DNA of 64,000 bases from an uncultured Acidimicrobiia bacterium. Lineage in GTDB: Bacteria; Actinomycetota; Acidimicrobiia; Spongiisociales; UBA11373. The translations under genes were made by a program, and so were the position numbers. The notes beneath the pieces are model-generated. The model made no database searches. It was not told the origin of the DNA and was given only the letters and a program-made list of their open reading frames with translations. Shown here in pieces: positions 7,125 to 39,200 of this stretch. Position 1 is the first letter of the stretch; every line of letters starts with the position of its first letter. Location of the stretch: contig CAZTJO010000002.1 of the NCBI GenBank assembly GCA_964614095.1, positions 32,043 through 96,042 of the forward strand, given 5' to 3'.

Positions 7125-7157
7125 CGTTCTCTTCCTCCGAAGAAGGAGCTGAGAACG
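7125..7157 (+). promoter_or_regulatory. pnp leader hairpin that occludes the Shine-Dalgarno and GTG start
   Basis: Inverted repeat CGTTCTC (7125-7131) / GAGAACG (7151-7157). The loop holds a TTCCTCC...GGAG sub-palindrome and the AAGGAG RBS. The 3' arm ends in the GTG start codon of pnp. This is consistent with the known autoregulated/RNase III-processed pnp leader. Confidence 0.5.
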
Positions 7158-9511
7158 TGTCGGAACACACTGTTCGAGCCACCGTGGGCGACGTTGAGAT
7201 CGTCTTCCAGGCCGGCAAACTTGCCCCCCAGGCCGACGGCGCCGTTGTTGTTGCCATGGGTGGAACGGAAGTCCTCGTTACGGCGACTGCCGCCAGGCAG
7301 CCGCGAGAAGGCGTCGACTTCTTCCCATTGACGGTCGACCTCGAGGAGCGGATGTATGCCGCCGGGAAGATCCCGGGATCATTCTTCCGACGTGAGGGCC
7401 GGCCCACTGAGAAGGCGATCCTGACGGCGCGCCTCATAGACCGGCCGCTGCGGCCGCTTTTCCGTGATGACTATCGATGCGAAACGCACATCGTCGCCAC
7501 CGTGCTGTCTGTGGACGACGTGCACCCCTACGACGTGGTTGCGCTCAACGGTGCCTCGGCTGCGCTGAGCATCAGCCCGATCCCCTTTGAAGGGCCCGTT
7601 GGGGCCGTGAGCATGGCGTATGCCGACGGCAAATGGATCCCCTTGCCGACATTTCCCCAACTCGAGGAGGCCGTCTTCCTCATGGTTGTTGCCGGGAAGC
7701 GCAACGAGCAGGGCAACGTGGACATAGCCATGGTCGAAGGGGGCGCCACTCCCGAAGCGCTGCGCCTCATTGCGGGCGGCCAGGCTCCCATCGACGAAGC
7801 TGCCGTGGCCCGGGGCCTCGAAGATGCCAAAGGCTACATCACCAATCTCATTGATCTGCAGCTCGGCCTGCACGACGAAATGGGGGAGATCCCGAAGGTG
7901 GAATGGCCCGCGGTGATCGACTACAGCGAGGAGTTGCTGGCCAAGGTCGACGAGGCGGCAAGGCCGCGTCTCGCCGAGGTCATCATCATCGTCGGCAAGC
8001 GGGAGCGCCAGGATGCCGAGGCGGCGGCTCGCGAGGCAACTCTTGCCGAGCTGGGCATCGACGAGGACCACGAAGACTTCGCCGCCGCCGGCCGCTGTTT
8101 CCGGGCGGTGTCCAAGAAGATGATGCGGGAGCGCATCATCGCCGAAGGGACGCGTCTCGATGGCCGCGCCGTGAACGAGGTCAGGCCCATAAGCATCGAG
8201 GTCGGTACGGTGGCCCGGGCCCACGGCTCAGGGCTCTTCCAGCGCGGTGAGACCCAGGTGCTCAACGTGGCCACTCTGGGCATGCTGCGTATGGAGCAGA
8301 TGTTGGACACGATCTCCGCCGAGGAGACCAAGCGCTACATGCACCACTACAACTTCCCGCCGTTCTCGACGGGTGAGACCGGTTTCATGCGCGGGCCGCG
8401 CCGACGCGAGATCGGGCATGGCGCACTTGCCGAGAAGGCGCTGCTTCCCGTTGTGCCCACGGCCGAGGTGTTCCCCTACGCATTTCGCCTGGTCTCCGAG
8501 GTGCTGTCGTCCAATGGCTCGTCGTCGATGGCTTCGGTGTGCGGATCGAGCCTTTCGCTCATGGACGCCGGGGTGCCGGTGGCGGCGCCGGTTGCCGGCG
8601 TGGCCATGGGTCTCATCGCCCACGATGAGGGTTTTGTGACGCTCACCGACATCCTCGGTGCCGAGGACGCTCTGGGCGACATGGACTTCAAGGTGGCCGG
8701 CACCGAAAACGTCGTCACCGCGTTGCAGCTCGACACCAAGATCGAAGGCCTTCCCGCCGACGTGCTCGTTGGTGCTCTCGAGGAGGCTCGGGTGGCGCGG
8801 CTGCACATCCTCGGCAAGATGAACGAGGTGATCGGCGAGCCCAGGGCGGAGCTCAACCCGTACGCTCCCCGCATCGAAGCCGTGCAGATTCCTCGGGACA
8901 AGATCGGTGAGGTCATCGGCCCCAAGGGCAAGATCATCCGCGAGATCGAAGAGGAGACCGGGGCCACATTGGAGATCGAGGACGACGGAACGGTTCGTAT
9001 CGGCGCTACCGACGGTCCGAGCCTCGCCGCGGCAAAGGAGCGGGTGATGAGCATCGCTTTCCCGCCCGAGGCCGAGATCGGCGCGACCTACGAGGGCGAG
9101 GTGGTGAACATCACCGCCTTTGGTGCCTTCGTAAACATCCTTCCAGGGCGCGACGGGCTACTGCACATATCGAAGATGGGCGGCGGCAAGCGGGTTGACC
9201 GGGTCGAAGACATCTACAGCCTTGGTGACAAGGTCGAGGTTGTGGTGCGGGAGATCGACCGCAACGGGAAGGTGAGCCTCGAGCTTCCGGGTGCTGCCGA
9301 CTCCGGCGACGGAGGCGGCGGTGAGCGCCGTTCCTCCGATGGTGGCGGCGGGCGCGGTGGTCGTGGCCGTGGAGGCCGCAGCGGTGGCGACCGTGGTGGT
9401 CGTGACCGTGGAAGCCGCGAAGGCGGCCGCGAGCGCAAGCCGCGTCCTCAGAGTGACAAGCCGGGCCGCAAGGTGGTGTCCTTCGAGGACGACTACGAGA
9501 AGGGCCTCTAG
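7157..9511 (+). CDS. pnp: Polynucleotide phosphorylase (PNPase) with a C-terminal Gly/Arg-rich (RGG-like) extension
   Basis: Two RNase PH-like domains, a KH domain (IPRDKIGEVIGPKGKIIREIEEETG) and an S1 domain (GEVVNITAFGAFVNILPGRDGLLHISK). The final ~70 aa are GGGGRGGRGRGGRSGGDRGGRDRG... GTG start. Confidence 0.96.
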   Translation: MSEHTVRATVGDVEIVFQAGKLAPQADGAVVVAMGGTEVLVTATAARQPREGVDFFPLTVDLEERMYAAGKIPGSFFRREGRPTEKAILTARLIDRPLRPLFRDDYRCETHIVATVLSVDDVHPYDVVALNGASAALSISPIPFEGPVGAVSMAYADGKWIPLPTFPQLEEAVFLMVVAGKRNEQGNVDIAMVEGGATPEALRLIAGGQAPIDEAAVARGLEDAKGYITNLIDLQLGLHDEMGEIPKVEWPAVIDYSEELLAKVDEAARPRLAEVIIIVGKRERQDAEAAAREATLAELGIDEDHEDFAAAGRCFRAVSKKMMRERIIAEGTRLDGRAVNEVRPISIEVGTVARAHGSGLFQRGETQVLNVATLGMLRMEQMLDTISAEETKRYMHHYNFPPFSTGETGFMRGPRRREIGHGALAEKALLPVVPTAEVFPYAFRLVSEVLSSNGSSSMASVCGSSLSLMDAGVPVAAPVAGVAMGLIAHDEGFVTLTDILGAEDALGDMDFKVAGTENVVTALQLDTKIEGLPADVLVGALEEARVARLHILGKMNEVIGEPRAELNPYAPRIEAVQIPRDKIGEVIGPKGKIIREIEEETGATLEIEDDGTVRIGATDGPSLAAAKERVMSIAFPPEAEIGATYEGEVVNITAFGAFVNILPGRDGLLHISKMGGGKRVDRVEDIYSLGDKVEVVVREIDRNGKVSLELPGAADSGDGGGGERRSSDGGGGRGGRGRGGRSGGDRGGRDRGSREGGRERKPRPQSDKPGRKVVSFEDDYEKGL

Positions 9512-9565: not shown

Positions 9566-9581
9566 TCGAACATACGTTCGA
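9566..9581 (+). promoter_or_regulatory. LexA (SOS) box TCGAACATACGTTCGA upstream of imuA'
   Basis: Perfect 16-bp palindrome matching the actinobacterial LexA operator TCGAAC-N4-GTTCGA. It lies 34 bp upstream of the ATG at 9615. Confidence 0.8.
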
Positions 9582-9614
9582 TACAATGCGAGGCCCATTA
9601 TTGGAGCGTTGGGC

Positions 9615-10238
9615 ATGCTGGAGCGGGTGCGGGCGGTGGGTCGTGTAACTGCGCCGTTTGTGGCTCCGGGCCGGGTGCTCGGACTGGTCGGTTCTCCGGG
9701 ACTCGGGCTCACCCGCCTCGGGCTGGCGCTGCTGGCCGATCCCGCCCATGGCGCCACGGTGGCGTTTGTCGACGTGCGGGGCTGGCTGTCACCCCTTTCC
9801 GCTTGGGAGGCGGGTATACCCCCGAAGCACCTCATTGTGGTGCGTTGTCCCGGACGGGATATTTGGGGGCAGGTGACCGCCGCTCTCCTCGAAGGGCTCT
9901 CCGCGGTGTATGCAGAGGTACCGGCCGGCGTCGACGGCAGTGTGCTGCGGCGCCTGGGCGCTCTGGCGCGGGCCCGTCGCGCCGTACTCATCCTGCGCCC
10001 GTTAAACGGCCGCCTCCCTTCCGGCTTGGCTCATCTCAAGCTTGTTGCCGAAAGGGTGCACTGGGAAGGTGCCGACTCCGGCCACGGCCGCATCGTGCGG
10101 CGCCTGCTGACTCTGCGCGCCGCCGGCAAGGGGGTAGGAGGTATCGAGTGGCTCTACGAGGTGGAGGATGAGGGCACGGACGTTGTGCGTGTGGTTTCCG
10201 AACTGGCCGCTGCGGAGGCCGGACGCGCCGCCGGATAA
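9615..10238 (+). CDS. imuA: ImuA'-like RecA-fold SOS mutagenesis protein (mutasome accessory)
   Basis: ~207-aa protein with a degenerate P-loop-like GLVGSPGLGLTRLGLALLA, directly downstream of a LexA box and upstream of imuB. Start chosen at ATG 9615 so the operator is not inside the CDS; the track ORF from 9558 would contain the box. Confidence 0.6.
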   Translation: MLERVRAVGRVTAPFVAPGRVLGLVGSPGLGLTRLGLALLADPAHGATVAFVDVRGWLSPLSAWEAGIPPKHLIVVRCPGRDIWGQVTAALLEGLSAVYAEVPAGVDGSVLRRLGALARARRAVLILRPLNGRLPSGLAHLKLVAERVHWEGADSGHGRIVRRLLTLRAAGKGVGGIEWLYEVEDEGTDVVRVVSELAAAEAGRAAG

Positions 10239-11613
10239 CCCCTGCCAGGTGGTCGGCGCCGACGGGGTGGTGACTGCGGCCAACGATCTCGCCTTTGCCG
10301 GCGGTGTTCGAGTTGGCATGCCGCGCCGCCGCGCCGAGACCCTGTGTCCGTCGGTCGTTACCCTGCCCGCCGATCCCGGTGCAGAGGCGGCCGCTTTCGA
10401 GATGGTGGCGCGAGCTGTGGAAACGGTGGCCCCCGGTGTCGAGATTGCCGAACCGGGGCTGCTGTTCCTCAACGTCTCTGGAGCTGTGCGCTATTACGGG
10501 GGCGAGGAGCCTCTTGTCGTCCGCGTCGGTCAGGCGGTTGGGGAGGTGGCTTCCGGGGCCCGGCTCGGCCTTGCCGATGGTCCTTTTGCCGCCCGCATGG
10601 CCGCGGCCGAAGGCGCGGCCATAGTCACCGACACCGATGGTTTTGTCGCCGGTCTCGACATCAGCACACTCGGAGTGCCCGAGATCGTCGGCACCTTCCG
10701 CTGGCTGGGGGTTACCACGCTTGGAGACCTGGCGGCGCTGCCGCGTGAAGCCGTGGCGTCGCGTTTTGGCCAGCCCGGTTTGGAGGTATACCGGCTGGCC
10801 CGTGGCGAGGACCGGGAGGTGTCCCCCCAACCGGTGCCACAGGATATGGAGGCCGAGGAGCGTTTTGATCCGCCGCTGCAAAACTTGGAGCAGGCGGCGT
10901 TTGCCGCCAGGTCGCTGGCGCACCGGCTCCTTGAAGTCGCCGCTCCGGGAATTCCGCACCTGGTAGTGGTGGAGGCCACGTCGGCGGCAGGCGAGGTTCG
11001 ATCCCGCACCTGGCGCAGCGCCGATCCTTTCACCGAGGGCGAGATGGCGGAGCGGATTCGCTGGCAGCTGCGGGCCTGGGTGGAGGGGGGCGGCATTCCC
11101 GGGGGCATGGCACGGCTGCGCCTCGTTCCCGGCGATCGCTCCGATTCAGGGCGCCAGATGTGTTTTGGTGAGGATGTCGCCGCGGCGGCGGAGTCTCGGC
11201 GCGCCCTGGCTCGCGCCCAGGCGCTCGTTGGTCCCGATGCCGTGCTGCAAGCAGTGCCGCAGGGAGGCAGGGAGCCGGGTGAGCGGGTCCGCTGGTATCG
11301 GTGGGGCGAGCCGGCGCCGCTGCCGATACACGACCCGAAGGCGCTGTGGCCCGGCCGCCTGCCCGATCCGGCGCCGGCGCTCTTGCCTCCGCCGCGCCGG
11401 GTGGAGGTGGAGTGGGATGGAGAATGCCCCGTTCGCATGCGGCTGGGGAGCCGCTGGGAGAAGGTGCACAATTGGGCCGGGCCGTGGCGGCGCACCGGTC
11501 GCTGGTGGGATGGGGAGCAGCACGCCGACCGCTATCAGATCGTCACCGGGGCCGGCGCATTCCTCTGCGAGCTGCACGATGGGGACTGTTACCTGGTCGG
11601 CATCTACGACTGA
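10168..11613 (+). CDS. imuB: ImuB (Y-family polymerase-like, catalytically inactive mutasome scaffold)
   Basis: N-terminus RTLCVWFPNWPL resembles the ImuB W-CPDWP start. UmuC/DinB-like fold segments (VGMPRRRAETLCP...). 481 aa. Overlaps the imuA' end by 70 nt in a different frame. Confidence 0.75.
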   Translation: MRARTLCVWFPNWPLRRPDAPPDNPCQVVGADGVVTAANDLAFAGGVRVGMPRRRAETLCPSVVTLPADPGAEAAAFEMVARAVETVAPGVEIAEPGLLFLNVSGAVRYYGGEEPLVVRVGQAVGEVASGARLGLADGPFAARMAAAEGAAIVTDTDGFVAGLDISTLGVPEIVGTFRWLGVTTLGDLAALPREAVASRFGQPGLEVYRLARGEDREVSPQPVPQDMEAEERFDPPLQNLEQAAFAARSLAHRLLEVAAPGIPHLVVVEATSAAGEVRSRTWRSADPFTEGEMAERIRWQLRAWVEGGGIPGGMARLRLVPGDRSDSGRQMCFGEDVAAAAESRRALARAQALVGPDAVLQAVPQGGREPGERVRWYRWGEPAPLPIHDPKALWPGRLPDPAPALLPPPRRVEVEWDGECPVRMRLGSRWEKVHNWAGPWRRTGRWWDGEQHADRYQIVTGAGAFLCELHDGDCYLVGIYD

Positions 11614-11644
11614 CCGGCGATTCTGCCCGCTACTCTCCGCCCTT

Positions 11645-12241
11645 GTGGATCGGAAGAGATGGGATCAGCGCCATTGCCAGAGCGATTATGTGACCGCGGC
11701 CGAGCCGAATAGGTTCCTGGCCGAGACGGTGGCCGCATTCGAGCCCGGTCGGGCCCTCGACCTGGCCGCAGGCCAGGGCCGCAACGCCGTTTGGCTGGCG
11801 GAGCAGGGGTGGGCGGTGACGGCGGTCGAGTGGTCGGGCGTGGCCGTCGAGCGCGGGCGCGAGCTGGCGGAGCGTCGGGGAGTATCCGTCGATTGGATCC
11901 TCGCCGATCTGCGGGAGTGGAAGCCGCCCCTGCAGGCTTTTGAGCTTGTGGTGATCTCCTATCTGCATCCACCCAGGGCGGAGCAGCGAGTCCTCTGGCT
12001 GATGGCGGCGGGAGCGGTGACGGCCGGGGGGCACTTCGTTGTGATTGGGCACGACCTGCGCAATCTCAGCGACGGTGCCGGCGGGCCCGGTGATCCTGAG
12101 CATCTCTATACGGCGGGGGACGTCGTCGAGGCTCTCGGCGGGGAGTTCGAGATCATCCGTGCCGAGGAGGTCCTGCGTGCCGTCGAAGGCGCGCCGTCTG
12201 CCATCGACAACATTGTGGTGGCGAGGCGGTCTTCGGCCTAG
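11645..12241 (+). CDS. Class I SAM-dependent methyltransferase (TehB-like small MTase); start uncertain (GTG 11645 or GTG 11690)
   Basis: LDLAAGQGRNAVWLAEQGWAVTAVEWS is a Rossmann SAM motif; ELVVISYLHPP is motif-II-like. It lies 30-75 bp after the imuB stop on the same strand. Confidence 0.6.
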   Translation: MDRKRWDQRHCQSDYVTAAEPNRFLAETVAAFEPGRALDLAAGQGRNAVWLAEQGWAVTAVEWSGVAVERGRELAERRGVSVDWILADLREWKPPLQAFELVVISYLHPPRAEQRVLWLMAAGAVTAGGHFVVIGHDLRNLSDGAGGPGDPEHLYTAGDVVEALGGEFEIIRAEEVLRAVEGAPSAIDNIVVARRSSA

Positions 12242-13002
12242 CGGCGCCGAGCCGAATCCTGGTGGCGAATACGTTCGTGGGTGGCGCCGACTATCTCATG
12301 AACCCGGGAGCGCAGGGCGTCGATGTCGTCGGAGCCGAGGCCGGCGGTGGGAATGGGCTCGTGGAACACCATCTTGGCCCGGCCTCTCCGGATGATCTTC
12401 GATTCAGGCGGCCAGATCTCGTAGAGGCCGGCGATGGCGACGGGAAGCACCGGCATGCCGTTGTCGATGGCGATGCGGAAGGCTCCTTTCTTGAATTCGT
12501 GCAGCTCGCCATCGCGAGAGCGGGTGCCCTCCGGGTAGACGATGAGCGACCGCCCCATCTCCACTACCCGGGCCACCTGTTCGTTGATCTTGCGGTGGGC
12601 GGCGGCACGGGCTTGGCGATCCGTCTCCACCATGCCGATGGAGCGCATGGCGCGGCCGAATATGGGGATCTTGTACAGCTCCTTCTTGGCAAGGAAGCGG
12701 ATCCCGACGGGCACAAAGGCGAGGTGGAACGGGGCATCCAGGTTCGAGATATGGTTCGAGACGAAAACGTAGGATTGGGCGGCGTCCACGTGCTCGATGC
12801 CTTCAAAGGTGGCCCGGACCCCGCAGGCGGCGCAGAAGACTCTTCCCCAGCTGCGCGCCACGGTATCTACATGTGGTGAGGTGGGCCGGAACCTGGTGAA
12901 CACGATGAGATAGCTGGAGACGGCAATGGTGTACAGCACCGCGATGGTGAGTCCCACTGCGGTGCGGATGGCCGAGCCGACGGTGCCCAGGGTCTTGAGC
13001 AT
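12238..13002 (-). CDS. plsC: 1-acyl-sn-glycerol-3-phosphate acyltransferase (lysophospholipid acyltransferase)
   Basis: HX4D motif (SNHISNLD), FLAKKELYKIPIFG and PEGTRS motifs. N-terminal TM segment. Confidence 0.85.
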   Translation of the reverse strand: MLKTLGTVGSAIRTAVGLTIAVLYTIAVSSYLIVFTRFRPTSPHVDTVARSWGRVFCAACGVRATFEGIEHVDAAQSYVFVSNHISNLDAPFHLAFVPVGIRFLAKKELYKIPIFGRAMRSIGMVETDRQARAAAHRKINEQVARVVEMGRSLIVYPEGTRSRDGELHEFKKGAFRIAIDNGMPVLPVAIAGLYEIWPPESKIIRRGRAKMVFHEPIPTAGLGSDDIDALRSRVHEIVGATHERIRHQDSARRR

Positions 13003-13117: not shown

Positions 13118-14323
13118 ATGAGGCGAATCGATCTGCAGCGTGCCCGGCGGCTGGCACTCGGCGCACAGGGGCTTGCCGAGCCCCGCCCCTCGGGCCGGGT
13201 CGATGTACGCCATCTGCGCCGGCTGATGCGCCGCATCGGGGCGCTCCAGATTGATTCGGTGAATGCCATCGAGCGGGCGCACCACCTCACCTTGTTCTCC
13301 CGGCTGGGAAGCCACGACCGCAGCCTGCTGTGGCGCGCGTTTGAGAACCACCGGCTTCTGTTCGAGTACTGGGGTCACGAGGCGTCGTTTCTTCCCATCG
13401 AGGACTACCCGCTGTTCCGGCACCGCATGGACGAGATGCACCCGTGGGTCAGGGTGGATCGGCTGAACCGGGAGCACCCGGGCTATGTGGAGCGGGTTCT
13501 CGATGAGGTGCACGAGGTGGGTCCGGTGGGCGCCGCCGACCTCTCCGACCCCGGCGAGTGCAAAGGCCCGTGGTGGGGCTGGAACCGCGGCAAGGTGGCC
13601 CTGGAGTGGCTGTTCGCCACCGGCAGGCTCGCCATCGCCGGGCGGCACAATTTCGCCCGTCGCTACGACGTGCCGGAACGGGTGATCCCGCCTGAGTATC
13701 TCCAGGCACCGCCGGTGCCACGCCCCGAGGCACATCGGCGCCTGCTGTTGATGGCGGCGCGCGCCTGTGGGGTGGCTACGGCCAAGGACCTGGCCGACTA
13801 CTACCGGATTCCCCTAGTGGCGGCGCGCCTCGCTCTCGCCGCCCTGGCCGAGGAGGGGACGCTGGAGCTTGTGGAAGTCGAGGGCTGGCGGCAGCCCGCC
13901 TACGTGCATCCGGAGGTGCCGGTGCCGCGCCGGCCGAGTCGGGCTGCCCTGCTGTGCCCCTTCGACCCGGTCGTGTGGAACCGGGAGCGGGTGGAGCGGG
14001 TCTTCGGCTTCAGCTACCGGATCGAGATCTACGTGCCTCGGCCCCAGCGCCGCTGGGGCTACTACGTCCTCCCGTTTCTGCTTGGGGATCGGCTGGTGGC
14101 CCGGGTTGATGTCAAGGCCGATCGCAGCCGCGGCTTGCTGCTGGTGCCCGGGGCCTTCATCGAGTCGGGGGAAGAGCCGGGCCGAGTGGTGCCGCCCCTG
14201 GTCGCAGAGCTGGAGCACCTGGCGTCCTGGCTCGGCCTCGAGGCGGTGACGGTTGGCGAATTCGGAGATCTGGCCCCGCCGCTGCACCGGGCATTCCCAG
14301 ATCGGCATGTATCACAGGACTAG
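13118..14323 (+). CDS. YcaQ/AlkZ-family winged-helix DNA glycosylase (DUF1006; interstrand-crosslink unhooking)
   Basis: ~400 aa with the N-terminal wHTH architecture of DUF1006. Contains RIGALQIDSVN, i.e. a Q-Phi-D catalytic motif of YcaQ type. Confidence 0.65.
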   Translation: MRRIDLQRARRLALGAQGLAEPRPSGRVDVRHLRRLMRRIGALQIDSVNAIERAHHLTLFSRLGSHDRSLLWRAFENHRLLFEYWGHEASFLPIEDYPLFRHRMDEMHPWVRVDRLNREHPGYVERVLDEVHEVGPVGAADLSDPGECKGPWWGWNRGKVALEWLFATGRLAIAGRHNFARRYDVPERVIPPEYLQAPPVPRPEAHRRLLLMAARACGVATAKDLADYYRIPLVAARLALAALAEEGTLELVEVEGWRQPAYVHPEVPVPRRPSRAALLCPFDPVVWNRERVERVFGFSYRIEIYVPRPQRRWGYYVLPFLLGDRLVARVDVKADRSRGLLLVPGAFIESGEEPGRVVPPLVAELEHLASWLGLEAVTVGEFGDLAPPLHRAFPDRHVSQD

Positions 14324-15269: not shown

Positions 15270-17552
15270 GTGTTGCGGCCAGCATCCACAGCAGGCAAGG
15301 CCGAGTGGCGAGAGTGGGGGCGCGCCATACGATCCGGGCTCGACCTGCACGCCATCTCGATGCATATCGTCGGTGGACTGCGCCGCTGGGGAGGCCTGCC
15401 CGGTGCCCGAGTGCTGCTCTATCAGCCTCTCCCCGATGAGCCGGATATCACCGCACTCCGCTTCGAAGCGGCGTCGTTCCTGACCCGTACCCCCGAGCGT
15501 GGTGAGCTCACCGTGCATCCCTTCGCGGGCCCGATGGAGCGGCACCGCTTCGGTTTCTTGCAGCCGAGGGATTCGGCGCCCGTGGTGGACCCGGCGCAGA
15601 TCGATGTAGCCCTGGTGCCCGGCGTCGTATTTGATGCTCAGGGGGTGCGCCTGGGGCGGGGGTCGGGATACCTCGATCGGTTCCTGGCCCGTCTCCGCCC
15701 CGACGCGCTCCGCATCGGAGTGGCCCCCTCGGAACTCGTTGTTGATCGGTTGCCCGTCGCCGAGCACGACGTCCCGATGACCCACCTCGCCACCGAGGCG
15801 GGTGTGGCGGCCGTAGGTGATGCGCTCGGGGCGGCGCTTCCGGAGGAGCTGCTGGTGAAGACGCGGGCCTGGATTGCCGGTGATCCCGACCCGGAGACCC
15901 GGGCGCAGCTGGAGCGCCTCATTGCGCTCGGCGCGGTCGACGAGCTGTCGGAACGTATGGCGGGCAGCCTCGAGTTCGGTACCGCAGGGATTCGTGGGGC
16001 GGTGGAGGCCGGCTCGAATCGAATGAATCGGGCCACGGTGATCCGAACCACAAAGGGATTGGCCGACTACCTCATCGAATTTCGGCCCGAGGGCGGGCCG
16101 GTGGTAGTGGGCTACGACGCCCGGCTCAGCAGCCCGACTTTTGCCGCCGACGCCGTTGCCGTGCTTGTTGCCGCCGGCATTCCCGTGCGGTATTTCGAGG
16201 AGCCGGTTCCCACCCCGCTTGTGGCCTACGCCGCACGTGTCTTCGGAGCCCGGGCTGCGGTGGTGGTGACGGCCAGCCACAATCCGCCGCGGGACAACGG
16301 CTACAAGGTGTACGACGCCAACGCCGCTCAGATCATCCCGCCGGTGGATACCGAGATTGCCGATTCCATCGAACGGGTGGGGGCCGCCGCCGATGTCCCC
16401 CGCTGTGAAGGAGCGCTTGAGGGGGAAAACGAACAGGCCGTGCCGATCGAGCCGGCGTGGCAAGAGAGATACGTCGACGATCTCCTCGGGATCCGGCCAC
16501 AAGGTGAGGCCGACCGCGATCTGTGCATCGTCTACTCGCCGCTGCACGGCGTGGCCGGACACCTGGCCGAGCGGTCGCTCGCCGCCGCCGGCTACCACGA
16601 GGTGCACACGGTCCCGGAACAGGCCGAGCCCAACGGCCGTTTCCCCACGGTCCCTTTCCCCAATCCCGAAGAGCCCGGCGCTCTAGACCTCGCCCTCGGC
16701 CTCGCCGGCGACGTCGGCGCCGATTTGGTGCTCGCCAACGATCCCGACGGTGACCGGCTCGCCGTCTGCCTCCCCGGCCCGGAAGGGTGGGTGCATCTCA
16801 CCGGCAACCAGACCGGCATCGTGCTCGGGGACTTCCTCCTCGAGAAGTATGCGGGCGAGGCTCCTCCACTGGTGATCAGCAGCATCGTCTCCTCGCCGAT
16901 GCTGGCGGCCGTCGCTGCTGCTCACGGGGCTCGCTACGAGTCCACCCTCACCGGGTTCAAGTGGATCGCCAATGCCGCTCTTGATCTCGAGGAGGCCGAG
17001 GGGCTGGAGTTCGTCTTCGGGTACGAAGAGGCCATCGGGTACACGGTGGGCCGGCTGGTTCGGGACAAGGACGGTGTCTCCGCCGCCGTGGTCTTTGCCG
17101 ATCTGGTGGCACAGGATCGGGCACGGGGAAAAACGGTCTTTGATCGCCTGGAGCGCCTGTACCGGCAGCATGGGCTCTGGGTCGGCACCCAGCTCAGTGT
17201 GATGCGGCCTGGTGAGCAGGGGGCGGCCGAGATCAATGCCGCCATGGACGGGTTGGCGGAGCACACCCCGGCGGTGCTCGGCGGATTTGAGGTCGATGCG
17301 GTTCTCGATTTTCGCGCCGGCGCCGAGAAACGTCCCCGGTGGCTGCCGGCGGCGGCGCTCGTCGTTTTTGATCTCGGGGCGGCGGGCCGGGCCCTGGTCC
17401 GGCCCAGCGGCACCGAACCCAAACTGAAGATCTACGTCGACCTACGCCGTGAGCTCGGGGCCGGCGACGAGCCGAGCGGCGCCGAGGCGGCGGCCCGGGA
17501 CCAGGCGGGACGGATTGCCTCGGATCTCGCCAAGTTCCTCGGATTCAGCTAG
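15270..17552 (+). CDS. In-frame fusion: N-terminal 5-formyltetrahydrofolate cyclo-ligase domain (~aa 1-180) + C-terminal phosphomannomutase/phosphoglucomutase
   Basis: The 5-FCL signature FDAQGVRLGRGSGYLDRF (GxGxGYYDR) and HDVPMTHLATE lie at the domain end. They are followed, without a stop, by the alpha-D-phosphohexomutase active site TASHNPPRDNGYKV and Mg loop. Confidence 0.8.
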   Translation: MLRPASTAGKAEWREWGRAIRSGLDLHAISMHIVGGLRRWGGLPGARVLLYQPLPDEPDITALRFEAASFLTRTPERGELTVHPFAGPMERHRFGFLQPRDSAPVVDPAQIDVALVPGVVFDAQGVRLGRGSGYLDRFLARLRPDALRIGVAPSELVVDRLPVAEHDVPMTHLATEAGVAAVGDALGAALPEELLVKTRAWIAGDPDPETRAQLERLIALGAVDELSERMAGSLEFGTAGIRGAVEAGSNRMNRATVIRTTKGLADYLIEFRPEGGPVVVGYDARLSSPTFAADAVAVLVAAGIPVRYFEEPVPTPLVAYAARVFGARAAVVVTASHNPPRDNGYKVYDANAAQIIPPVDTEIADSIERVGAAADVPRCEGALEGENEQAVPIEPAWQERYVDDLLGIRPQGEADRDLCIVYSPLHGVAGHLAERSLAAAGYHEVHTVPEQAEPNGRFPTVPFPNPEEPGALDLALGLAGDVGADLVLANDPDGDRLAVCLPGPEGWVHLTGNQTGIVLGDFLLEKYAGEAPPLVISSIVSSPMLAAVAAAHGARYESTLTGFKWIANAALDLEEAEGLEFVFGYEEAIGYTVGRLVRDKDGVSAAVVFADLVAQDRARGKTVFDRLERLYRQHGLWVGTQLSVMRPGEQGAAEINAAMDGLAEHTPAVLGGFEVDAVLDFRAGAEKRPRWLPAAALVVFDLGAAGRALVRPSGTEPKLKIYVDLRRELGAGDEPSGAEAAARDQAGRIASDLAKFLGFS

Positions 17553-26021: not shown

Positions 26022-26665
26022 ATCTGCCGCCCCACTCGGATGACGATGAGCACTCCCTCGTCCACGATGATCGTGGCCGAGTGACCGGTCAATTCGTTGC
26101 TTACCCCCCGAGTGGAACCTGGTGAGAGAGTCTCGCTGGCCAGGGGCCAACGGAGATTGTTTGAAGAGACGCCCTGGGCGGGCCCACCGGCGGCAAGGAG
26201 GGTCACTTTGTCGCCGGGCTCTCCCCGGAGTACGACCCGGTCGTGCACGATGGCCACGTGCGCTCCCTTGACCCACCAGCGCGGACGAAGGCCGGCAAAT
26301 CGAGGGGAGGCAAGCAGGAGGGCGTTGGCCAGCAAATGGTCGATGCGGTCCCATCCCGCGCCCCCCACCACGATTGCAGGAGAGAGACCGCGGGCAGCTG
26401 CGGCCTCCAGTGCCAGTTCGAGATCGGAGACGTCCTTGTCCTCCGGATGGCGCTCGATTTTGGCGCCCGCTTCGGTTGCTGCGGCGAGCTCGGCCGGATC
26501 GGCCGAATCCAGGTCACCGACGACCAGATCCACGTTGACCTTGAGGCCGATTGCGGTGTGGAGGCCCGAGTTGGCGGCGATCACGAACGCATCGCTCGGA
26601 AGCATGGGGGACACGTCGCGCGTCACCGGATCGCCCCCGGCGAAGATGATGACTGGCGTCTCCAT
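26018..26665 (-). CDS. thiN: Thiamine pyrophosphokinase (TPK)
   Basis: 215 aa with VIIFAGGDP N-terminus and VVGDLDSADP (GDxDS Mg site). First gene of the operon downstream of the TPP riboswitch. Confidence 0.75.
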   Translation of the reverse strand: METPVIIFAGGDPVTRDVSPMLPSDAFVIAANSGLHTAIGLKVNVDLVVGDLDSADPAELAAATEAGAKIERHPEDKDVSDLELALEAAAARGLSPAIVVGGAGWDRIDHLLANALLLASPRFAGLRPRWWVKGAHVAIVHDRVVLRGEPGDKVTLLAAGGPAQGVSSNNLRWPLASETLSPGSTRGVSNELTGHSATIIVDEGVLIVIRVGRQM

Positions 26666-26770
26666 GGCTCCCTCCGCTGGAATTACCCAGATCAGGTTCC
26701 GCGGGTCGGTGACGTTGCCTTGCGGCCGGCCACCCTCTCAGCTCGGCTAGCCCGAGCTCCCCGGAGCCCT
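26666..26770 (-). ncRNA. TPP (thiamine pyrophosphate) riboswitch controlling TPK-tbpA-thiPQ
   Basis: Minus strand reads ...GGGGAGCUCGGGCUAGCCGAGCUGAGAGGGUGGCCGG...GCGGAACCUGAUCUGGGUAAUUCCAGCGGAGGGAGCC-AUG. It has the conserved CUGAGA and ACCUGAUCUGGGUAAUnCCAGCGnAGGGA cores. The SD (GGAGGGAG) is embedded in the 3' end, immediately 5' of the TPK ATG. Confidence 0.85.
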
Positions 26771-26822
26771 TCAATCGTACCACTGGGGCTGTGGACAAGT
26801 TCGTGGTAGGGGGGGCCGTGCC

Positions 26823-31309: not shown

Positions 31310-31325
31310 TTGAACATGAGTTCAA
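31310..31325 (+). promoter_or_regulatory. 16-bp perfect palindrome TTGAACATGAGTTCAA overlapping the tetR start codon (operator; core GAAC-N4-GTTC)
   Basis: Perfect inverted repeat centred on the ATG at 31316. A second TGAACA half-site lies 20 bp upstream (31291-31296). Confidence 0.55.
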
Positions 31326-32023
31326 CTCCTTCCGGTTCCGGTCGTGGTGTGTCGGTGGACGACCGGACGGCCAGAGCCCGCATTCGGGATGCCGCAGTCG
31401 GTTGTTTTGCCGAGCACGGCATCGCCGGGACGACGGCCCGTAAGGTTGCCGCTGCTGCCGGTGTCTCACCGGGCCTGGTGATGCATCACTTTGGCTCGAT
31501 GGAGGGCCTGCGCCGGGCCTGTGACGAGTACGTGACCGACACCATCCGCCGGGAGAAGCAGAGAGCGCTGGCGACCGGCCCCGGGCTTGATGTGCTGGCG
31601 GCGCTACGCGACAGCGACGCGGTCTCGCTGATGGGCTACCTGGCCCGGGTGCTGGCCGATGACTCGCCGGCGGTGGCCCAGTTGGTCGACGACCTGGTGG
31701 CCGACGCGGTCGACTACCTGCGGCAAGGCGAGGAGACGGGAATGCTGCGTCCGGCCCCCGACCGGCGGGGACGTGCGGCCGTGCTCACGCTCTGGTCGCT
31801 GGGGGCGTTGGTGCTGCACCGCCACCTGAAGCGCATCCTGGGGGTCGACCTCGTCAACCCAGAGGCCGCTACGGGTCCCGCCATCGCCTCTTACCTCGGG
31901 CCGAGCTACGAGATCCTTGGCGAGGGTATCTTCACCGAGGCGGTGGCGGCACAATTGAGCGCCGCCGTTGCGGAGATTGAGGGTGACGATCTGAGGGTTG
32001 GGCCCGCAACTCCGAGAACATGA
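31316..32023 (+). CDS. TetR/AcrR-family transcriptional regulator
   Basis: N-terminal HTH (RIRDAAVGCFAEHGIAGTTARKVAAAAGVSPGLVMHHFGSMEGL). Upstream of an ABC-2 exporter. Confidence 0.85.
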   Translation: MSSTPSGSGRGVSVDDRTARARIRDAAVGCFAEHGIAGTTARKVAAAAGVSPGLVMHHFGSMEGLRRACDEYVTDTIRREKQRALATGPGLDVLAALRDSDAVSLMGYLARVLADDSPAVAQLVDDLVADAVDYLRQGEETGMLRPAPDRRGRAAVLTLWSLGALVLHRHLKRILGVDLVNPEAATGPAIASYLGPSYEILGEGIFTEAVAAQLSAAVAEIEGDDLRVGPATPRT

Positions 32024-35556: not shown

Positions 35557-36054
35557 TCAAGCACGGTGGCGCACCAAGCGCCACAATCCGGCGACGAAGT
35601 TCCAGCCCGGCACACGCTCCATGTACTCGAGGTATTCGTCGCCGAATTTGACGATGGCGAGAGCGTCCACACTACGGAAGTCCACACACGCCAGCACGAA
35701 CGCCACCGCGCCCATGATGATGACCACCGGGTGCTGTGACACGAGCGCGACTGCGACGGCCATCAGCGGCCAGGCCACATACTGCGGATGGCGCACGATC
35801 GCATAGAGTCCGGTATCGACGAGCCGGGTCGTTTTGACGTAGCTGTCACCCTTGGCGACGCCGCCGCCTCTTCTGAACTGGTAGATGGGCACCCATCCGA
35901 AGACGGCCGCAAGCGCCCATAGAGCGAAGCCGATGTAGCGGAGCCAGGCGATGTCACCTCCGCCGAACACGATCAGCAGGACGATCTGGCCCATCACGAG
36001 TCCGGTAGCGATCCACGACGCGATCCACTTGGGCCGTTTGGCCACAACGATCAC
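35557..36054 (-). CDS. ICMT/PEMT-family membrane methyltransferase
   Basis: RLVDTGLYAIVRHPQYVAW...FGDEYLEYMERVPGWNF is the isoprenylcysteine carboxyl methyltransferase-family C-terminal signature. 4-5 TM helices. The N-terminal part of the 456-aa track ORF is antisense to dnaE2 and was rejected. Confidence 0.65.
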   Translation of the reverse strand: MIVVAKRPKWIASWIATGLVMGQIVLLIVFGGGDIAWLRYIGFALWALAAVFGWVPIYQFRRGGGVAKGDSYVKTTRLVDTGLYAIVRHPQYVAWPLMAVAVALVSQHPVVIIMGAVAFVLACVDFRSVDALAIVKFGDEYLEYMERVPGWNFVAGLWRLVRHRA

Positions 36055-36213
36055 CCCCGTTGCCAACCTACCAGTTGGCGGGCGCTCTCTCCGGTCTCGG
36101 CGTGCCGTACCAGTCGGCGCCCGATCCGGCACGCTCGCCGGGGACTTCGAATCACGGCTGAGGCCCGGCTCGGTGACACTTACTTCGGCTCGAGACGGCT
36201 GACCCCAGTGTGA

Positions 36214-36229
36214 TCGAACATATGTTCGA
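36214..36229 (+). promoter_or_regulatory. LexA (SOS) box TCGAACATATGTTCGA upstream of dnaE2
   Basis: Perfect 16-bp palindrome of the actinobacterial LexA operator, 18 bp upstream of the dnaE2 ATG. It differs from the imuA' box by 2 nt in the spacer. Confidence 0.8.
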
Positions 36230-36246: not shown

Positions 36247-39200
36247 ATGACTCGTTATGCCGAGCTGCATTGCCACACCAACTTCTCGTTTCGCGACGGG
36301 GCCTCGCACCCGCACGACCTGGTGCGGCGGGCTGCCGATCTCGGCTACGAGGCGCTGGCCGTCACCGACCACAACGGCTTCTACGGCGCCCCCAAATTCC
36401 GCACTGCGGCGCAAGAGGTGGGGCTGCCCACCGTGTATGGGGTCGAGGTGGCGCTGGACGCCCCCGAGGGCGAATCCCTCGAGCACCTCGTGCTGCTGGC
36501 ACCCGACCCGGCGGGCTACGCCGCCCTCTGCCGGCTGGTCACCCGGGCCCAATTCCGCGGCGGGAAGGAGCATCCCGTCTACGACGAGGGCGAGCTGGCC
36601 GAGGCCTCGTCCACCGGTCGCCTCGTCGCCCTCACCGGGTGCCGGCGGGGAGCGGTGCCGCAGGCCGCGCAGGACGGCGACCTCGATGCGGCGATGCGGG
36701 CCGCAGTCCGGCTGCGCGAGATTTTCCCCGGCCGTCTCTACGTGGAGCTGTGGCACCATGCCATGCCCGAGGACGATGCCCGCAACGACGTGCTCGCCGA
36801 GGTGGCCGCCCGGCTGGGCCTTCCCTTGGTGGCCACCAACAACGTGCACTATCACGACCGCTCCGAGGCCGATCTCGCCGAGGTGCTCGCCGCCATAGGG
36901 GGCCGGCGTTCCCTCGACGGCGGGCACGGGTTCTGGTCGGCGACGGACGAGCGCTACCTGAAGCCGCCCGGCCAGATGGCGCGCCGCTTTCTCCGCTATC
37001 CGGGTGCGGTGGAACGTGCCGCTGATCTGGGGGCCGCCCTCGCCTTCGACCTTTCCCTAGTGGCGCCGCGCCTCCCCGACTTCCCCATGCCCGGGGCCTT
37101 CCTCAATGAGATGGAGTACCTGCGCCACCTGACCTTTCAGGGTGCCGTCGAGGTGTACCCGGGCGACGGGCCCGGCGGCATCGATCCGCGGGCGATCACC
37201 CGCCTCGATCACGAGCTGGGGGTCATCGGAGAACTCGGCTTCCCCGGCTACTTCCTCGTGGTGTGGGACATCGTGCAGTTCGCCCGCCGCCGGGACATCT
37301 ACTGTCAGATCAGGGGCTCGGGCGGCGATTCTGTGGTGTGTCGCTGCCTCGGGCTCACCCGGGTCGATCCTCTGCGCCTTGCTCTGCCCTTCGAGCGTTT
37401 TCTCTCCGCCGAGCGAGGCCGCCCTCCCGACATCGACGTCGACTTCGAGGCAGAGCGGCGTGAGGAGGTCATCCAGTACTGCTACGAGCGCTACGGGCGG
37501 GAGCGGGCGGCGATGGTGGCCAACGTGATCACGTACCGGGCCCGCTCCGTTTTGCAGGACGTGGGCAAGGCCTTTGGGCTCACCCAGGCCCAGGTGAACG
37601 GCCTCACCAAGTACCTCGACAGCCGCAGGACAGAGGCGATTCCCGAGTTTGTCGACCTGCCGGAAGGGCTCAGCGGCGAGCTCATCCTCGACGCCTGCCG
37701 CCGCCTCGACGGTTTTCCCCGCCACCTCGGCATCCACTCGGGAGGCATGGTCATCGCCGACCGGCCCCTCTGGGAGGTGGTACCTCTGGAGTGGGGGCGC
37801 ATGGAGGACCGTTCGGTGTTGCAGTGGGACAAGGACGACTGCGCCTCCATGGGCATCGTCAAGTTCGATCTCCTGGGTCTGGGCATGCTCAACGCTCTCC
37901 ACCTCACCGTCGACCTCATCGCCGACGTGCACGGCGTCGACGTCGATCTGGCTTCGCTGCCACAGGAGCCGGTGGTCTACGAGATGCTGACCAAGGCCGA
38001 CACGGTCGGTGTTTTCCAGGTGGAGTCGCGGGCCCAGATGGCAACGCTGCCGCGTGTGAAGCCGAAGACTTTCTACGACCTCGCCATCGAGGTAGCCCTC
38101 ATCCGTCCCGGCCCCATCCAGGGGCACTCGGTGCATCCGTTCTTGCGCCGGCGCAACGGCGAGGAGCCGGTGAGTTACCCCCATCCCACTGCCGAGCCCA
38201 TCCTGTACAAGACGCTGGGCATTCCCGTTTTCCAGGAGCAGCTGATGGAGCTGGCCCGGGTGTGCGCCGGCTACAGCGCCGGGCAGTCCGATCGTCTGCG
38301 CCAGGCGATGACCCACAAACGCTCCGAGGAGGAGATGGCCAAGCTCCGGGCAGAGACTTACGTCGGCATGGCCGGCAACGGGATCACCGGCTCCGCCGCC
38401 GACGAGATCTGGGAGAAGCTCCAAGGGTTCGCCTCGTTTGGCTTTCCCGAGAGCCATTCGGTGTCGTTCGCTTACATCGTGTACATGTCGGCGTGGCTCA
38501 AGTATCACTGGCCCGCTGAACTGCTCGCCGGCCTCCTCAACGCCCAGCCCATGGGTTTTTACAGCCCGAATTCACTCGTTCAGGACGCCCGCCGGCACGG
38601 GGTTATCGTGCTGCCTCCCGACGTGAACGAGTCTTCGTGCGACTGCACGGTGGTGCCGCATCCCGCCGATCCCGAGGACACGGCCACTTACTACGGGATG
38701 ACGTGGCGGCGGGGCAGAGGGGCGCACGACGACCCCATTCGACTGGCGACGGCGGTGCGTATGGGGCTGCGCTACGTGCGCAACTTGGGCGAGGCCGAGA
38801 TTGCCCGCATCGAGGCCGCCCGGTTCCTCGGGGGGCCCTTCGCCGACATGGTCGATCTGGCGCAACGCACCGGGCTGGCGGTGAAGGGGCTTGAGGGCCT
38901 GGCCGCCTCCGGTGCCCTTTCCTCGCTGGGTGTGGAACGCCGCCGGGGCCTGTGGGCGGCCGGGGCACTGGCCGGTATGGGTCCGGGGCGGCTTGCCCTG
39001 GCCGAGGGGGTCGATGCTCCGGCGCTGGAACCGATGACCGAGGTCGAGTCGACCCAGGCCGACCTGTGGTCGACGGGGGTCTCGGTTTTTCATCCCGTCG
39101 AGTTCCTTCGCGAGTGGCTTGAGGGTCGGGGGTGTTTGTCCATCGCTTCCGCCCTCGCCGGCGGCAACGGAAAGCGGGCGGCGGTTGGAGGTGTCATCAC

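Follow-up and report, generated by a model that had tools for sequence, protein, structure and literature searches.

The whole stretch of DNA analyzed here, 64 kb in length and referred to as the window, carries the known actinobacterial split imuA'-imuB/dnaE2 SOS mutagenesis cassette, in this case in an uncultured Acidimicrobiia host. The gene for a class I SAM-dependent methyltransferase that follows imuB is, on balance, probably a clade-specific neighbor of this cassette, with a predicted transcript that would be mainly its own, leaderless and independent of LexA. The features on which this reading is based are compiled in Table 1.

Table 1. Positions (in the window) of the genes and regulatory elements of the split SOS cassette and its neighbors.
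Feature	Position	Strand	Characteristics
LexA operator TCGAACATACGTTCGA	9566-9581	no strand	perfect match to TCGAAC-N4-GTTCGA (actinobacterial consensus)
Putative -10 hexamer TACAAT of the imuA' promoter	9582-9587	+	abuts the LexA box; read from the sequence
imuA'	9615-10238	+	207 aa; RecA-fold accessory factor
imuB	10168-11613	+	481 aa; alternative start TTG 10183
TACTCT, -10-like TANNNT hexamer	11631-11636	+	8 nt 5' of the methyltransferase start; predicted leaderless promoter
Class I SAM-dependent methyltransferase	11645-12241	+	198 aa; GTG start; Slr1183/TehB-like
plsC-like 1-acylglycerol-3-phosphate acyltransferase	12238-13002	-	convergent; stop codon overlaps the methyltransferase stop
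Second perfect LexA operator TCGAACATATGTTCGA	36214-36229	no strand	followed by TACACT; 17 nt 5' of dnaE2
dnaE2 (imuC)	36247-39465	+	1072 aa; error-prone C-family DNA polymerase

LexA operators of the two mutasome units

A perfect LexA operator before imuA' had been noted in the preliminary description of this DNA, and the 16-mer was indeed located there, with 33 nt between its end and the ATG of imuA' at 9615. A scan of the 64-kb window for TCGAAC-N4-GTTCGA revealed a second perfect box, before dnaE2, which had been missed. Both boxes match the TCGAAC-N4-GTTCGA consensus at 12 of 12 positions and stand directly before mutasome genes, and these two perfect matches compare with 0.00 expected from 100 dinucleotide shuffles of the window. 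The consensus was defined for M. tuberculosis, where the top LexA ChIP-seq peaks include Rv3395c (imuA') and dnaE2 (PMC3381160); as in the actinobacterial LexA regulon, both operators in the window are placed in promoter regions. Moreover, the imuA' box was found with zero to two mismatches in all 26 related loci having upstream sequence (perfect in 17 of them), at positions from -136 to +8 nt relative to the estimated imuA' start. The earlier assignment of a LexA-boxed imuA'-imuB mutasome operon is thus strengthened by the presence of dnaE2 with its own box and by the conservation of the imuA' box in these 26 loci. The -10 hexamer TACAAT abutting the imuA' box is given as putative because a consensus sigma-70 scan returned no full -35/-10 promoter at imuA'; the TACACT trailing the dnaE2 box is analogous to it.

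The GAAC-N4-GTTC core also occurs in another, different palindrome, TTGAACATGAGTTCAA, observed at 31310-31325, at a TetR gene. Together with the fact that a crude scan of the 64-kb window with a regular expression for the S24-peptidase motif detected no lexA, this palindrome might be taken to mean that the boxes are chance occurrences or sites of another regulator and that imuA'-imuB is not under SOS control. Such an explanation is highly improbable, as it would have to accommodate two perfect matches where 0.00 are expected, both fronting mutasome genes, the retention of the box in 26 orthologous loci and the identical motif and targets in M. tuberculosis.

ImuA', ImuB and DnaE2

The ATG of imuA' is preceded at a distance of 8 nt by the Shine-Dalgarno sequence GGAG (9603-9606). 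Its ORF matches the NCBIfam model for ImuA' (NF058630) only just above the cut-off (65.3 as compared to 65 bits), and its orthologues carry the Pfam domain PF27531 MT3502_N. Likeness to the P-loop region of RecA is weak and local, and the Walker A lysine is replaced (GSPGLGLT as compared to GPESSGKT in RecA, the change from GKT to GLT being visible in the alignment). This ImuA'-family protein is encoded immediately 5' of imuB and coupled to it: in agreement with the preliminary description, whose coordinates were right, the two genes overlap. The shared stretch is 71 nt long, or 56 nt should imuB begin at TTG 10183, and an overlap of 56-71 nt is conserved in relatives.

ImuB matches the Pfam family IMS (7e-14), hits to Pol IV being sub-threshold only, and shows 85% identity to the protein of the nearest MAG and about 32% to those of Microbacteriaceae. 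In the alignment, ImuB has G-L (PGLLFLNV) where the Pol IV motif SIDEAYLDV has its catalytic D-E, a difference conserved in the homologues, and the N-terminus CVWFPNWP, also conserved among homologues, appears to replace the N-terminal DxD region, a part of the protein that lies outside the tool alignment. Judged by these residues, ImuB is a catalytically inactive homologue of Y-family polymerases. Residues 329-334 (RQMCFG) follow an RQ[LM]x[LF] motif shared by the homologues; the corresponding alignment column, which reads RQLx[LF][FL] throughout Acidimicrobiia, resembles the clamp consensus QLxLF, and RQMCFG represents a candidate beta-clamp motif. The polymerase gene dnaE2 sits 26 kb from imuA'-imuB, and its product was recognized by the model 'error-prone DNA polymerase' (NF004225) with 1255.6 bits at a cut-off of 939, with DnaE1 models below their cut-offs and with the domains PHP, DNA_pol3_alpha, finger, HHH_6 and OB. 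We infer that DnaE2 is the catalytic partner of ImuA'-ImuB.

Since the mechanism is transferred from the M. tuberculosis system, we propose it in conditional form. In uninduced cells, LexA bound to the perfect palindromes abutting the -10 hexamers would repress both promoters, one of which would drive the translationally coupled imuA'-imuB (9615-11613) and the other dnaE2 (36247-39465). Upon DNA damage, RecA-stimulated cleavage of LexA would de-repress both promoters, and the catalytically dead ImuB on the beta clamp would, together with ImuA', recruit DnaE2 for error-prone lesion bypass.

The split mutasome of M. tuberculosis was reportedly described by Warner and colleagues in 2010, and mycobacterial ImuB carries a clamp motif of the QLPLWG type. 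The system comprises imuA' (Rv3395c)-imuB (Rv3394c) and dnaE2 (Rv3370c) and is LexA-regulated (PMC3381160; PMC10421592). The window shares with it the two-gene imuA'-imuB unit and the separate dnaE2, each with a TCGAAC-N4-GTTCGA box in front, as well as an ImuB without the catalytic acidic residues, an ImuA' of the actinobacterial (primed) type and a DnaE2 recognized by the error-prone model. By contrast, the host here is an uncultured member of the Acidimicrobiia, no more than 26 kb lies between the two units, imuB is followed by a methyltransferase gene, and the candidate clamp motif is RQMCFG and not of the mycobacterial type. The proteobacterial lexA-imuA-imuB-dnaE2 cassette (imuABC; Erill et al., 2006, and studies on Caulobacter and Pseudomonas) represents the same functional module, with DnaE2, a RecA-like factor and an inactive Y-family hub protein under LexA control; however, it is contiguous, encodes ImuA in place of ImuA' and ImuB1 in place of ImuB2, and has other LexA motifs, whereas the cassette described here is split and of the actinobacterial type.

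The methyltransferase encoded 3' of imuB

The preliminary description had placed a class I SAM methyltransferase gene 3' of imuB on the same strand, which is borne out by its scores against Methyltransf_25 (PF13649; 47.3 bits, cut-off 27) and Methyltransf_11 (PF08241; 32.6 bits, cut-off 21.2), i.e., a Rossmann-fold SAM-binding domain above the Pfam gathering score. A gap of 31 nt separates the stop codon of imuB from GTG 11645; this gap contains no in-frame start codon, and the GTG start is backed by the N-terminus M/V-D-R-x-x-W-D-x-R-Y conserved in 36 homologues. The GC content of the gene (0.68-0.69) is like that of its neighbors, so that no compositional anomaly points to recent transfer.

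The best solved relative of the protein is Slr1183 (2KW5/3MER), matched over residues 6-182 (9e-35); TehB is matched over the SAM-binding half (3e-10). It resembles both in consisting of a Rossmann-fold methyltransferase domain alone, about 200 aa in length, and it has in common with TehB the GxGRN motif. The Pfam model for TehB gave 28.1 bits, restricted to the SAM-binding part (profile positions 23-74 of 193), and the TehB equivalog cut-offs were missed (NF008992, 38.2 vs 303 bits; NF008405, 34 vs 218 bits; TIGR00477, 30.2 vs 219.5 bits). An identity as TehB tellurite-resistance protein is not supported by these scores, which are far under the cut-offs. The homologues share 27 invariant residues, among them the motif GxGRNAxWLA, whereas the imuB-linked subfamily differs from Slr1183 and TehB proteins at large by its own signature residues VDWS and DNIVVA. 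The papers found to mention Slr1183 describe no function for it. Most likely, the enzyme methylates a small molecule by TehB/TPMT-type chemistry, and not DNA. One paralogue of the methyltransferase is encoded between a thioredoxin and a CsoR-type metal sensor, a context that suggests a role of the family in stress or detoxification.

Promoter and terminator signals between imuB and the methyltransferase gene

It had been proposed that the methyltransferase gene is probably co-transcribed as a third member of the operon, a view that a promoter or terminator in the gap would call into question. As regards the 31-nt gap and the terminator, the proposal stood: no terminator-like site was detected in 11613-11645 (folding z = -0.29), and the intergenic RNA of relatives, when folded alone, formed no significant or conserved hairpin at this junction. 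Putative terminators in loci L073 and L007 were discarded, being significant only with the coding flanks included and lost when the intergenic RNA was folded alone. An Rfam scan of the whole window returned nothing in the imuA'-imuB-methyltransferase locus. Hence, imuB and the methyltransferase gene resemble an operon in strand, short gap and lack of a terminator. What did not stand is the absence of an internal promoter, since a conserved TANNNT hexamer predicts one before the methyltransferase gene.

In all 12 distinct imuB-linked loci for which DNA was available, a TANNNT hexamer (TACTCT, TAGCCT, TACCCT or TATACT) precedes the methyltransferase start by 6-8 nt and a Shine-Dalgarno sequence is missing, and the gaps between imuB and the methyltransferase gene, 28-127 nt in length, are unalignable apart from this hexamer. 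As background, of the 4133 codons reading ATG or GTG in the window, 18 (0.44%) show TANNNT at 6-8 nt without a Shine-Dalgarno sequence, eight of which open ORFs of more than 190 aa, namely those of the methyltransferase, of plsC and of six others. TANNNT is found 7-12 bp upstream of 73% of the transcription start sites in M. tuberculosis, where 26% of the genes are leaderless, and the motif and its spacing at the methyltransferase gene match these start sites (PMC3898074). As in leaderless actinobacterial genes (Cortes et al., 2013; PMC3898074), TANNNT stands a few nt before ATG or GTG without a Shine-Dalgarno sequence, the signature here being predicted from sequence and comparison. We regard this combination as an actinobacterial leaderless-promoter signature and, thus, as a predicted promoter of the methyltransferase gene; a -35 element was not identified for it. 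Among paralogues of the methyltransferase not linked to imuB, a strict TANNNT was present before 3 of 56; visual inspection alone suggested less strict NANNNT hexamers in many of them, and these sequences were left out of the evidence. No LexA box was found at the methyltransferase gene itself or at its paralogues elsewhere (metagenome scan of 323 kb of methyltransferase loci), the sole box with at most one mismatch, apart from the imuA' box of the imuB-linked locus L073, lying inside a coding region.

Given the conserved TANNNT at 6-8 nt from a start codon that has no Shine-Dalgarno sequence, the main mRNA of the methyltransferase would most likely be leaderless, beginning at or beside GTG 11645, and LexA-independent. 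SOS read-through RNA from imuB probably also covers the gene, because no terminator follows imuB; its translation is expected to be poor, since the methyltransferase start would then be internal and without a Shine-Dalgarno sequence. Dual control, by a constitutive leaderless promoter and a meaningful contribution of SOS read-through, can be entertained as a tentative possibility, with the enzyme serving as a peripheral, damage-boosted detoxification enzyme that has no physical role in the mutasome. The coexistence of a predicted internal promoter with the lack of a terminator after imuB is consistent with this arrangement, as is the stress-related context of the paralogue described above, but it would require internal initiation at a gene lacking a Shine-Dalgarno sequence, and classical stop-start coupling would need a shorter gap than the 31 nt found here or the up to 127 nt of other loci.

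Phylogenetic distribution and gene order

On the basis of species-representative genomes, in which it was seen in 2 of about 25 Acidimicrobiia loci, the methyltransferase gene had been taken for a rare insertion. This reading was overturned by look-ups from the methyltransferase side and dropped because every member of the subfamily adjoins imuB: the gene forms one orthologous subfamily (46-73% identity), located directly 3' of imuB in 13 of 13 contexts examined. Neighbor-joining trees of ImuB and of the methyltransferase are congruent, the linked loci forming one clade in each, and the junction is kept in loci whose further downstream genes are not the same (L133 with SDRs, L135 with an RTX-repeat gene, L137 and L138 with unknown genes). 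The synteny comparison asked for in the preliminary description thus gave a divided answer, as the adjacency extends throughout one sub-clade and is missing in sister clades and other Actinomycetota. The order imuA'-imuB-methyltransferase is limited to a single monophyletic Acidimicrobiia sub-clade (the 13 contexts); beside imuB, the methyltransferase gene is absent in the sister Acidimicrobiia clades, in the Microbacteriaceae and Planctomycetota loci and in all other imuA'B/imuAB loci retrieved. In sister clades, plsC directly abuts imuB (L004, L005, L014, L018-L022), or the slot after imuB is taken by MarR, DUF1706/DinB_2, GNAT or DUF222 genes, and other subfamilies of the methyltransferase, i.e., paralogues, occur in unrelated contexts, not at imuB.

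The plsC product was identified by an Acyltransferase match (1e-30) and by TIGR00530 (112.6 bits, cut-off 103), and the start of its gene is preceded by its own TAGCCT-N6-ATG. This gene, which does not belong to the mutasome, indicates where the imuB locus ended ancestrally on its 3' side. The most likely history of the methyltransferase gene is a single insertion between imuB and the convergent plsC before one Acidimicrobiia sub-clade diversified, with vertical inheritance thereafter; selection for linkage could alternatively explain why the junction is kept in all 13 contexts. Synteny extends to the same degree to unrelated neighbors, with PNPase on the upstream side and plsC and AlkZ on the other, and therefore the conserved order is not specific evidence of function here.

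These observations also bear on a true three-gene SOS operon, in which the methyltransferase would be expressed mainly from the LexA-controlled imuA' promoter, be induced by damage and act with the mutasome, for example by methylating a mutasome protein or neutralizing a genotoxic small molecule, roles that it might have. We consider such an operon unlikely. It would be in line with the shared strand, the gaps of 28-127 nt, the lack of a terminator in the window, the congruent trees and the fact that in each of the 13 subfamily contexts the gene comes right after imuB despite different downstream neighbors; against this weigh the missing gene in sister Acidimicrobiia clades and in all other imuA'B/imuAB loci retrieved, the equal synteny of PNPase, plsC and AlkZ and a literature search for a methyltransferase tied to the imuA/imuB cassette, which found none. 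As stated in the preliminary description, a methyltransferase is not part of the canonical cassette. That the imuB-linked subfamily is a functional SOS mutasome accessory, damage-induced by read-through and acting on a mutasome protein or a genotoxic small molecule, appears quite unlikely.

Implications

The mycobacterial SOS mutasome, with identical operator and split architecture, is now extended to uncultured Acidimicrobiia, and the SOS operator constitutes a strong phylogenetic footprint across this class. The methyltransferase linkage offers a clean test case for the question of whether conserved order beside an SOS operon means co-regulation, and the leaderless-promoter signature at the methyltransferase gene predicts that it is not co-regulated with the SOS operon. 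If this prediction were wrong, the Slr1183-type family, for which a structure has been solved, would gain its first functional context, in DNA-damage tolerance; and if the methyltransferase were truly a mutasome accessory, imuA'-imuB-methyltransferase would add a three-gene form to the known types of this cassette.

The imuA'-imuB and dnaE2 Loci

The preliminary description of this region had proposed a LexA-boxed imuA'-imuB operon, and its LexA box, the imuA'/imuB overlap (71 nt, or 56 nt if imuB starts at TTG 10183) and the downstream methyltransferase gene were all recovered where it had placed them (see table). Perfect matches to the SOS box TCGAAC-N4-GTTCGA number two in the window, as compared to 0.00 expected from 100 dinucleotide-preserving shuffles, and matches with up to two mismatches number eight (2.3 expected). 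Among the related loci having sequence upstream of imuA' (n=26), all 26 carry, at or 5' of the estimated imuA' start (offsets -136 to +8 nt), an SOS box that is perfect in 17 cases and has no more than two mismatches in the others, so that the operator is a phylogenetic footprint and no chance palindrome. In M. tuberculosis, the TCGAAC(N4)GTTCGA consensus is experimentally defined, and the strongest LexA ChIP-seq peaks include Rv3395c (imuA') and dnaE2 (PMC3381160).

Features of the window
Feature	Position	Strand	Description
PNPase gene	7157-9511		C-terminal tail beyond S1 domain, 9227-9511
LexA box TCGAACATACGTTCGA	9566-9581		perfect TCGAAC-N4-GTTCGA, upstream of imuA'
TACAAT	9582-9587		abuts 3' end of the imuA' LexA box
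GGAG	9603-9606		precedes imuA' ATG 9615
imuA'	9615-10238	+	207-aa ORF, ATG start
imuB	10168-11613	+	481-aa ORF, TGA stop
methyltransferase gene	11645-12241	+	class I SAM-dependent, 198 aa, GTG start, 31 nt after imuB TGA
plsC	12238-13002	-	convergent acyltransferase gene
AlkZ-like gene	13118-14323	+	DNA glycosylase, PF06224 2.5e-69
fusion ORF	15270-17552	+	760 aa
TPP riboswitch	26654-26773	-	RF00059, 60 bits, gathering score 54.3
palindrome TTGAACATGAGTTCAA	31310-31325		overlaps start codon of TetR-family gene
TetR-family gene	31316-32023	+	first gene of ABC-transporter cluster
PEMT/ICMT-family gene	~35557-36060	-	membrane methyltransferase
LexA box TCGAACATATGTTCGA	36214-36229		perfect, TACACT next, 17 nt 5' of dnaE2
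dnaE2	36247-39465		1072-aa ORF, NF004225 'error-prone DNA polymerase' 1255.6 bits, cut-off 939

The imuA' ORF barely passed the cut-off of NCBIfam NF058630 for ImuA', the accessory factor of DnaE2-dependent mutagenesis (65.3 bits; cut-off 65), and its orthologues on related contigs carry PF27531 MT3502_N in precomputed Pfam. ImuA' shows weak local similarity to the RecA P-loop region, but its Walker A lysine is replaced (GSPGLGLT vs GPESSGKT in RecA). In the imuB ORF, a Y-family IMS domain was detected (7e-14), with Pol IV scores remaining sub-threshold, and alignments to solved Pol IV structures placed Gly-Leu of 'PGLLFLNV' at the catalytic Asp-Glu of 'SIDEAYLDV'. This replacement is common to the ImuB homologues, as are an N-terminal CVWFP[ND]WP and an RQ[LM]x[LF] motif resembling the clamp-binding motif; judged by these predicted features, the ORF matches ImuB as described, namely a catalytically dead mutasome hub (PMC6511836; PMC10421592).

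The second perfect box and dnaE2 had previously been overlooked. Their presence completes a split imuA'-imuB / dnaE2 cassette with a perfect SOS box per unit, the same arrangement as in M. tuberculosis, and Shine-Dalgarno-type GGAG or GGAGG precedes the start codons of imuA' and dnaE2. The LexA-boxed operon is real and ordinary, a new Acidimicrobiia example of the known split mutasome; that imuA'-imuB escapes SOS control altogether is extremely improbable. The PEMT/ICMT-family gene is divergent from dnaE2, and their common intergenic region of ~190 nt holds the second LexA box; hence both mutasome loci have a methyltransferase neighbour, the two being unrelated. The palindrome TTGAACATGAGTTCAA has the GAAC-N4-GTTC core in common with the SOS box; it could serve TetR autoregulation or bind LexA weakly.

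Elsewhere in the window, the fusion ORF joins a 5-formyltetrahydrofolate cyclo-ligase domain to all four phosphoglucomutase/phosphomannomutase domains, a fusion also called on a related contig, and the TPP riboswitch is the sole Rfam match. The PNPase tail of ~70 aa has a high content of Arg, Gly, Asp and Glu (GGGGERRSSDGGGGRGGRGRGGRSGGDRGGRDRGSREGGRERKPRPQ...).

Identity of the Methyltransferase

The methyltransferase scored 47.3 bits with Methyltransf_25 and 32.6 bits with Methyltransf_11, and its GTG start is backed by a conserved N-terminus, M/V-D-R-x-x-W-D-x-R-Y. A profile of 37 homologues found Slr1183 of Synechocystis (2KW5/3MER) as the closest solved protein (9e-35), the papers found to mention that protein describing no function, and TehB at 3e-10 only. 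Orthology to TehB was ruled out, as TehB equivalogs reached 30-38 bits vs cut-offs of 218-303. DNA-methyltransferase features were absent from the protein. In loci L139/L140 (3621-4896), a paralogous subfamily (53% identical) lies 5 nt downstream of a thioredoxin gene and overlaps a gene for a CsoR-type metal-sensing repressor, which hints at a role of the wider family in redox, metal or chalcogen stress. Given the family resemblance and this paralogue between thioredoxin and a CsoR-type sensor, the substrate is probably a small molecule.

Conservation of the imuB-Methyltransferase Linkage

A search of species-representative genomes for ImuB yielded 49 loci, the nearest in uncultured Acidimicrobiia MAGs (L001 at 85% identity, then 47-62%), followed by Microbacteriaceae (~32%) and then Planctomycetota and Caulobacterales. 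Among the ~25 Acidimicrobiia imuA'-imuB loci of these genomes, the methyltransferase gene lies 3' of imuB only in L001 (73% identical) and L007 (46%). A plsC-like convergent acyltransferase gene abuts imuB in L004, L005, L014 and L018-L022, leaving no space for an extra gene, and in other sister-clade loci the imuB/plsC slot is occupied by unrelated genes, for MarR (L002), DUF1706/DinB_2 (L012), GNAT (L015), DUF222 (L017) or a BTAD regulator (L023). Among these sister clades of Acidimicrobiia, this junction is an insertion site of variable content.

All eight looked-up homologues at 53-72% identity (P0003, P0006, P0008, P0015, P0037, P0041, P0066, P0083) are encoded directly 3' of an IMS-domain gene, and a metagenome scan added two linked loci, L053 and L073. 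The same scan gave 78 further methyltransferase loci (44-54% identity) with no ImuB match, many of them on short contigs with scant upstream sequence, and the P0078 and P0067 methyltransferases have contexts unrelated to imuB. The imuB-methyltransferase junction stays constant while the downstream genes change, which is notable: L133 has two SDRs and NAD kinase downstream, L135 has an RTX-repeat gene, and L137, L138 and L051 have unknown genes. In the ImuB neighbour-joining tree, as in that of the methyltransferase, the linked loci group into one clade, and the ImuB/methyltransferase identities fall in parallel (85/73, 81/72, 70/59, 65/56, 63/49, 61/46). In the simplest history, the gene would have been inserted once at the imuB/plsC junction of the sub-clade ancestor and inherited vertically thereafter. 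As a neighbour of imuB, the methyltransferase gene is specific to this clade and stably linked. Conserved order here is weak evidence of function, since wide synteny also extends to PNPase on the upstream side and to plsC and AlkZ on the downstream side, genes that have no functional link to the mutasome. The AlkZ-like gene, divergent from plsC and three genes 3' of imuB, also occurs near imuB in L001, L004, L005, L073, L135 and the P0083 contig; its upstream region holds no SOS box with up to two mismatches.

Expression of the Methyltransferase Gene

The preliminary description regarded the methyltransferase as a putative third operon member. Co-transcription is favoured by the common strand and short gap, where no terminator-like site was found; folding of the gap was not significant (z = -0.29), and no conserved hairpin was present in relatives when the intergenic RNA alone was folded. 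The stop codons of the methyltransferase gene and plsC overlap (12238-12241, cTAG), leaving these convergent genes without intergenic space and without a terminator between them. Against co-transcription as the main expression mode, TANNNT (TACTCT, TAGCCT, TACCCT or TATACT) stands 6-8 nt before the methyltransferase start in each of the 12 distinct linked loci for which DNA was available, and none of them has a Shine-Dalgarno-like sequence there, in contrast to imuA' and dnaE2; the gaps (28-127 nt) are unalignable apart from this hexamer. No SOS box was found near the methyltransferase gene in the window or near its paralogues. The proposal therefore stood in part, with no terminator and the gene 3' of imuB throughout one sub-clade, and failed in part, the gene being preceded by a predicted promoter of its own and missing at imuB in many relatives; true operon membership is quite unlikely.

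Of the primary transcription start sites of M. tuberculosis, 73% have TANNNT 7-12 bp upstream, a -35 motif is not found, and leaderless genes account for 26% of the total (PMC3898074). TANNNT without a Shine-Dalgarno sequence is the signature of Actinobacteria leaderless mRNAs, and its conservation points to an own promoter and a leaderless methyltransferase transcript. Some RNA probably also reads through from the SOS promoter, its efficient translation being unlikely, and a meaningful dual control by both promoters is rather unlikely. Such a hexamer precedes 18 of the 4133 ATG/GTG codons in the window (0.44%), eight of which open ORFs >190 aa: the methyltransferase gene, plsC (13002, -), the TetR-family gene (31316), which has TATAGA 7 nt upstream of its ATG and is thus of the leaderless type, and ORFs starting at 27596 (-), 30014, 47919 (-), 49975 and 55262. 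This suggests that leaderless mRNAs are common in the source organism, in which the methyltransferase gene is probably an independent leaderless neighbour of imuA'-imuB.
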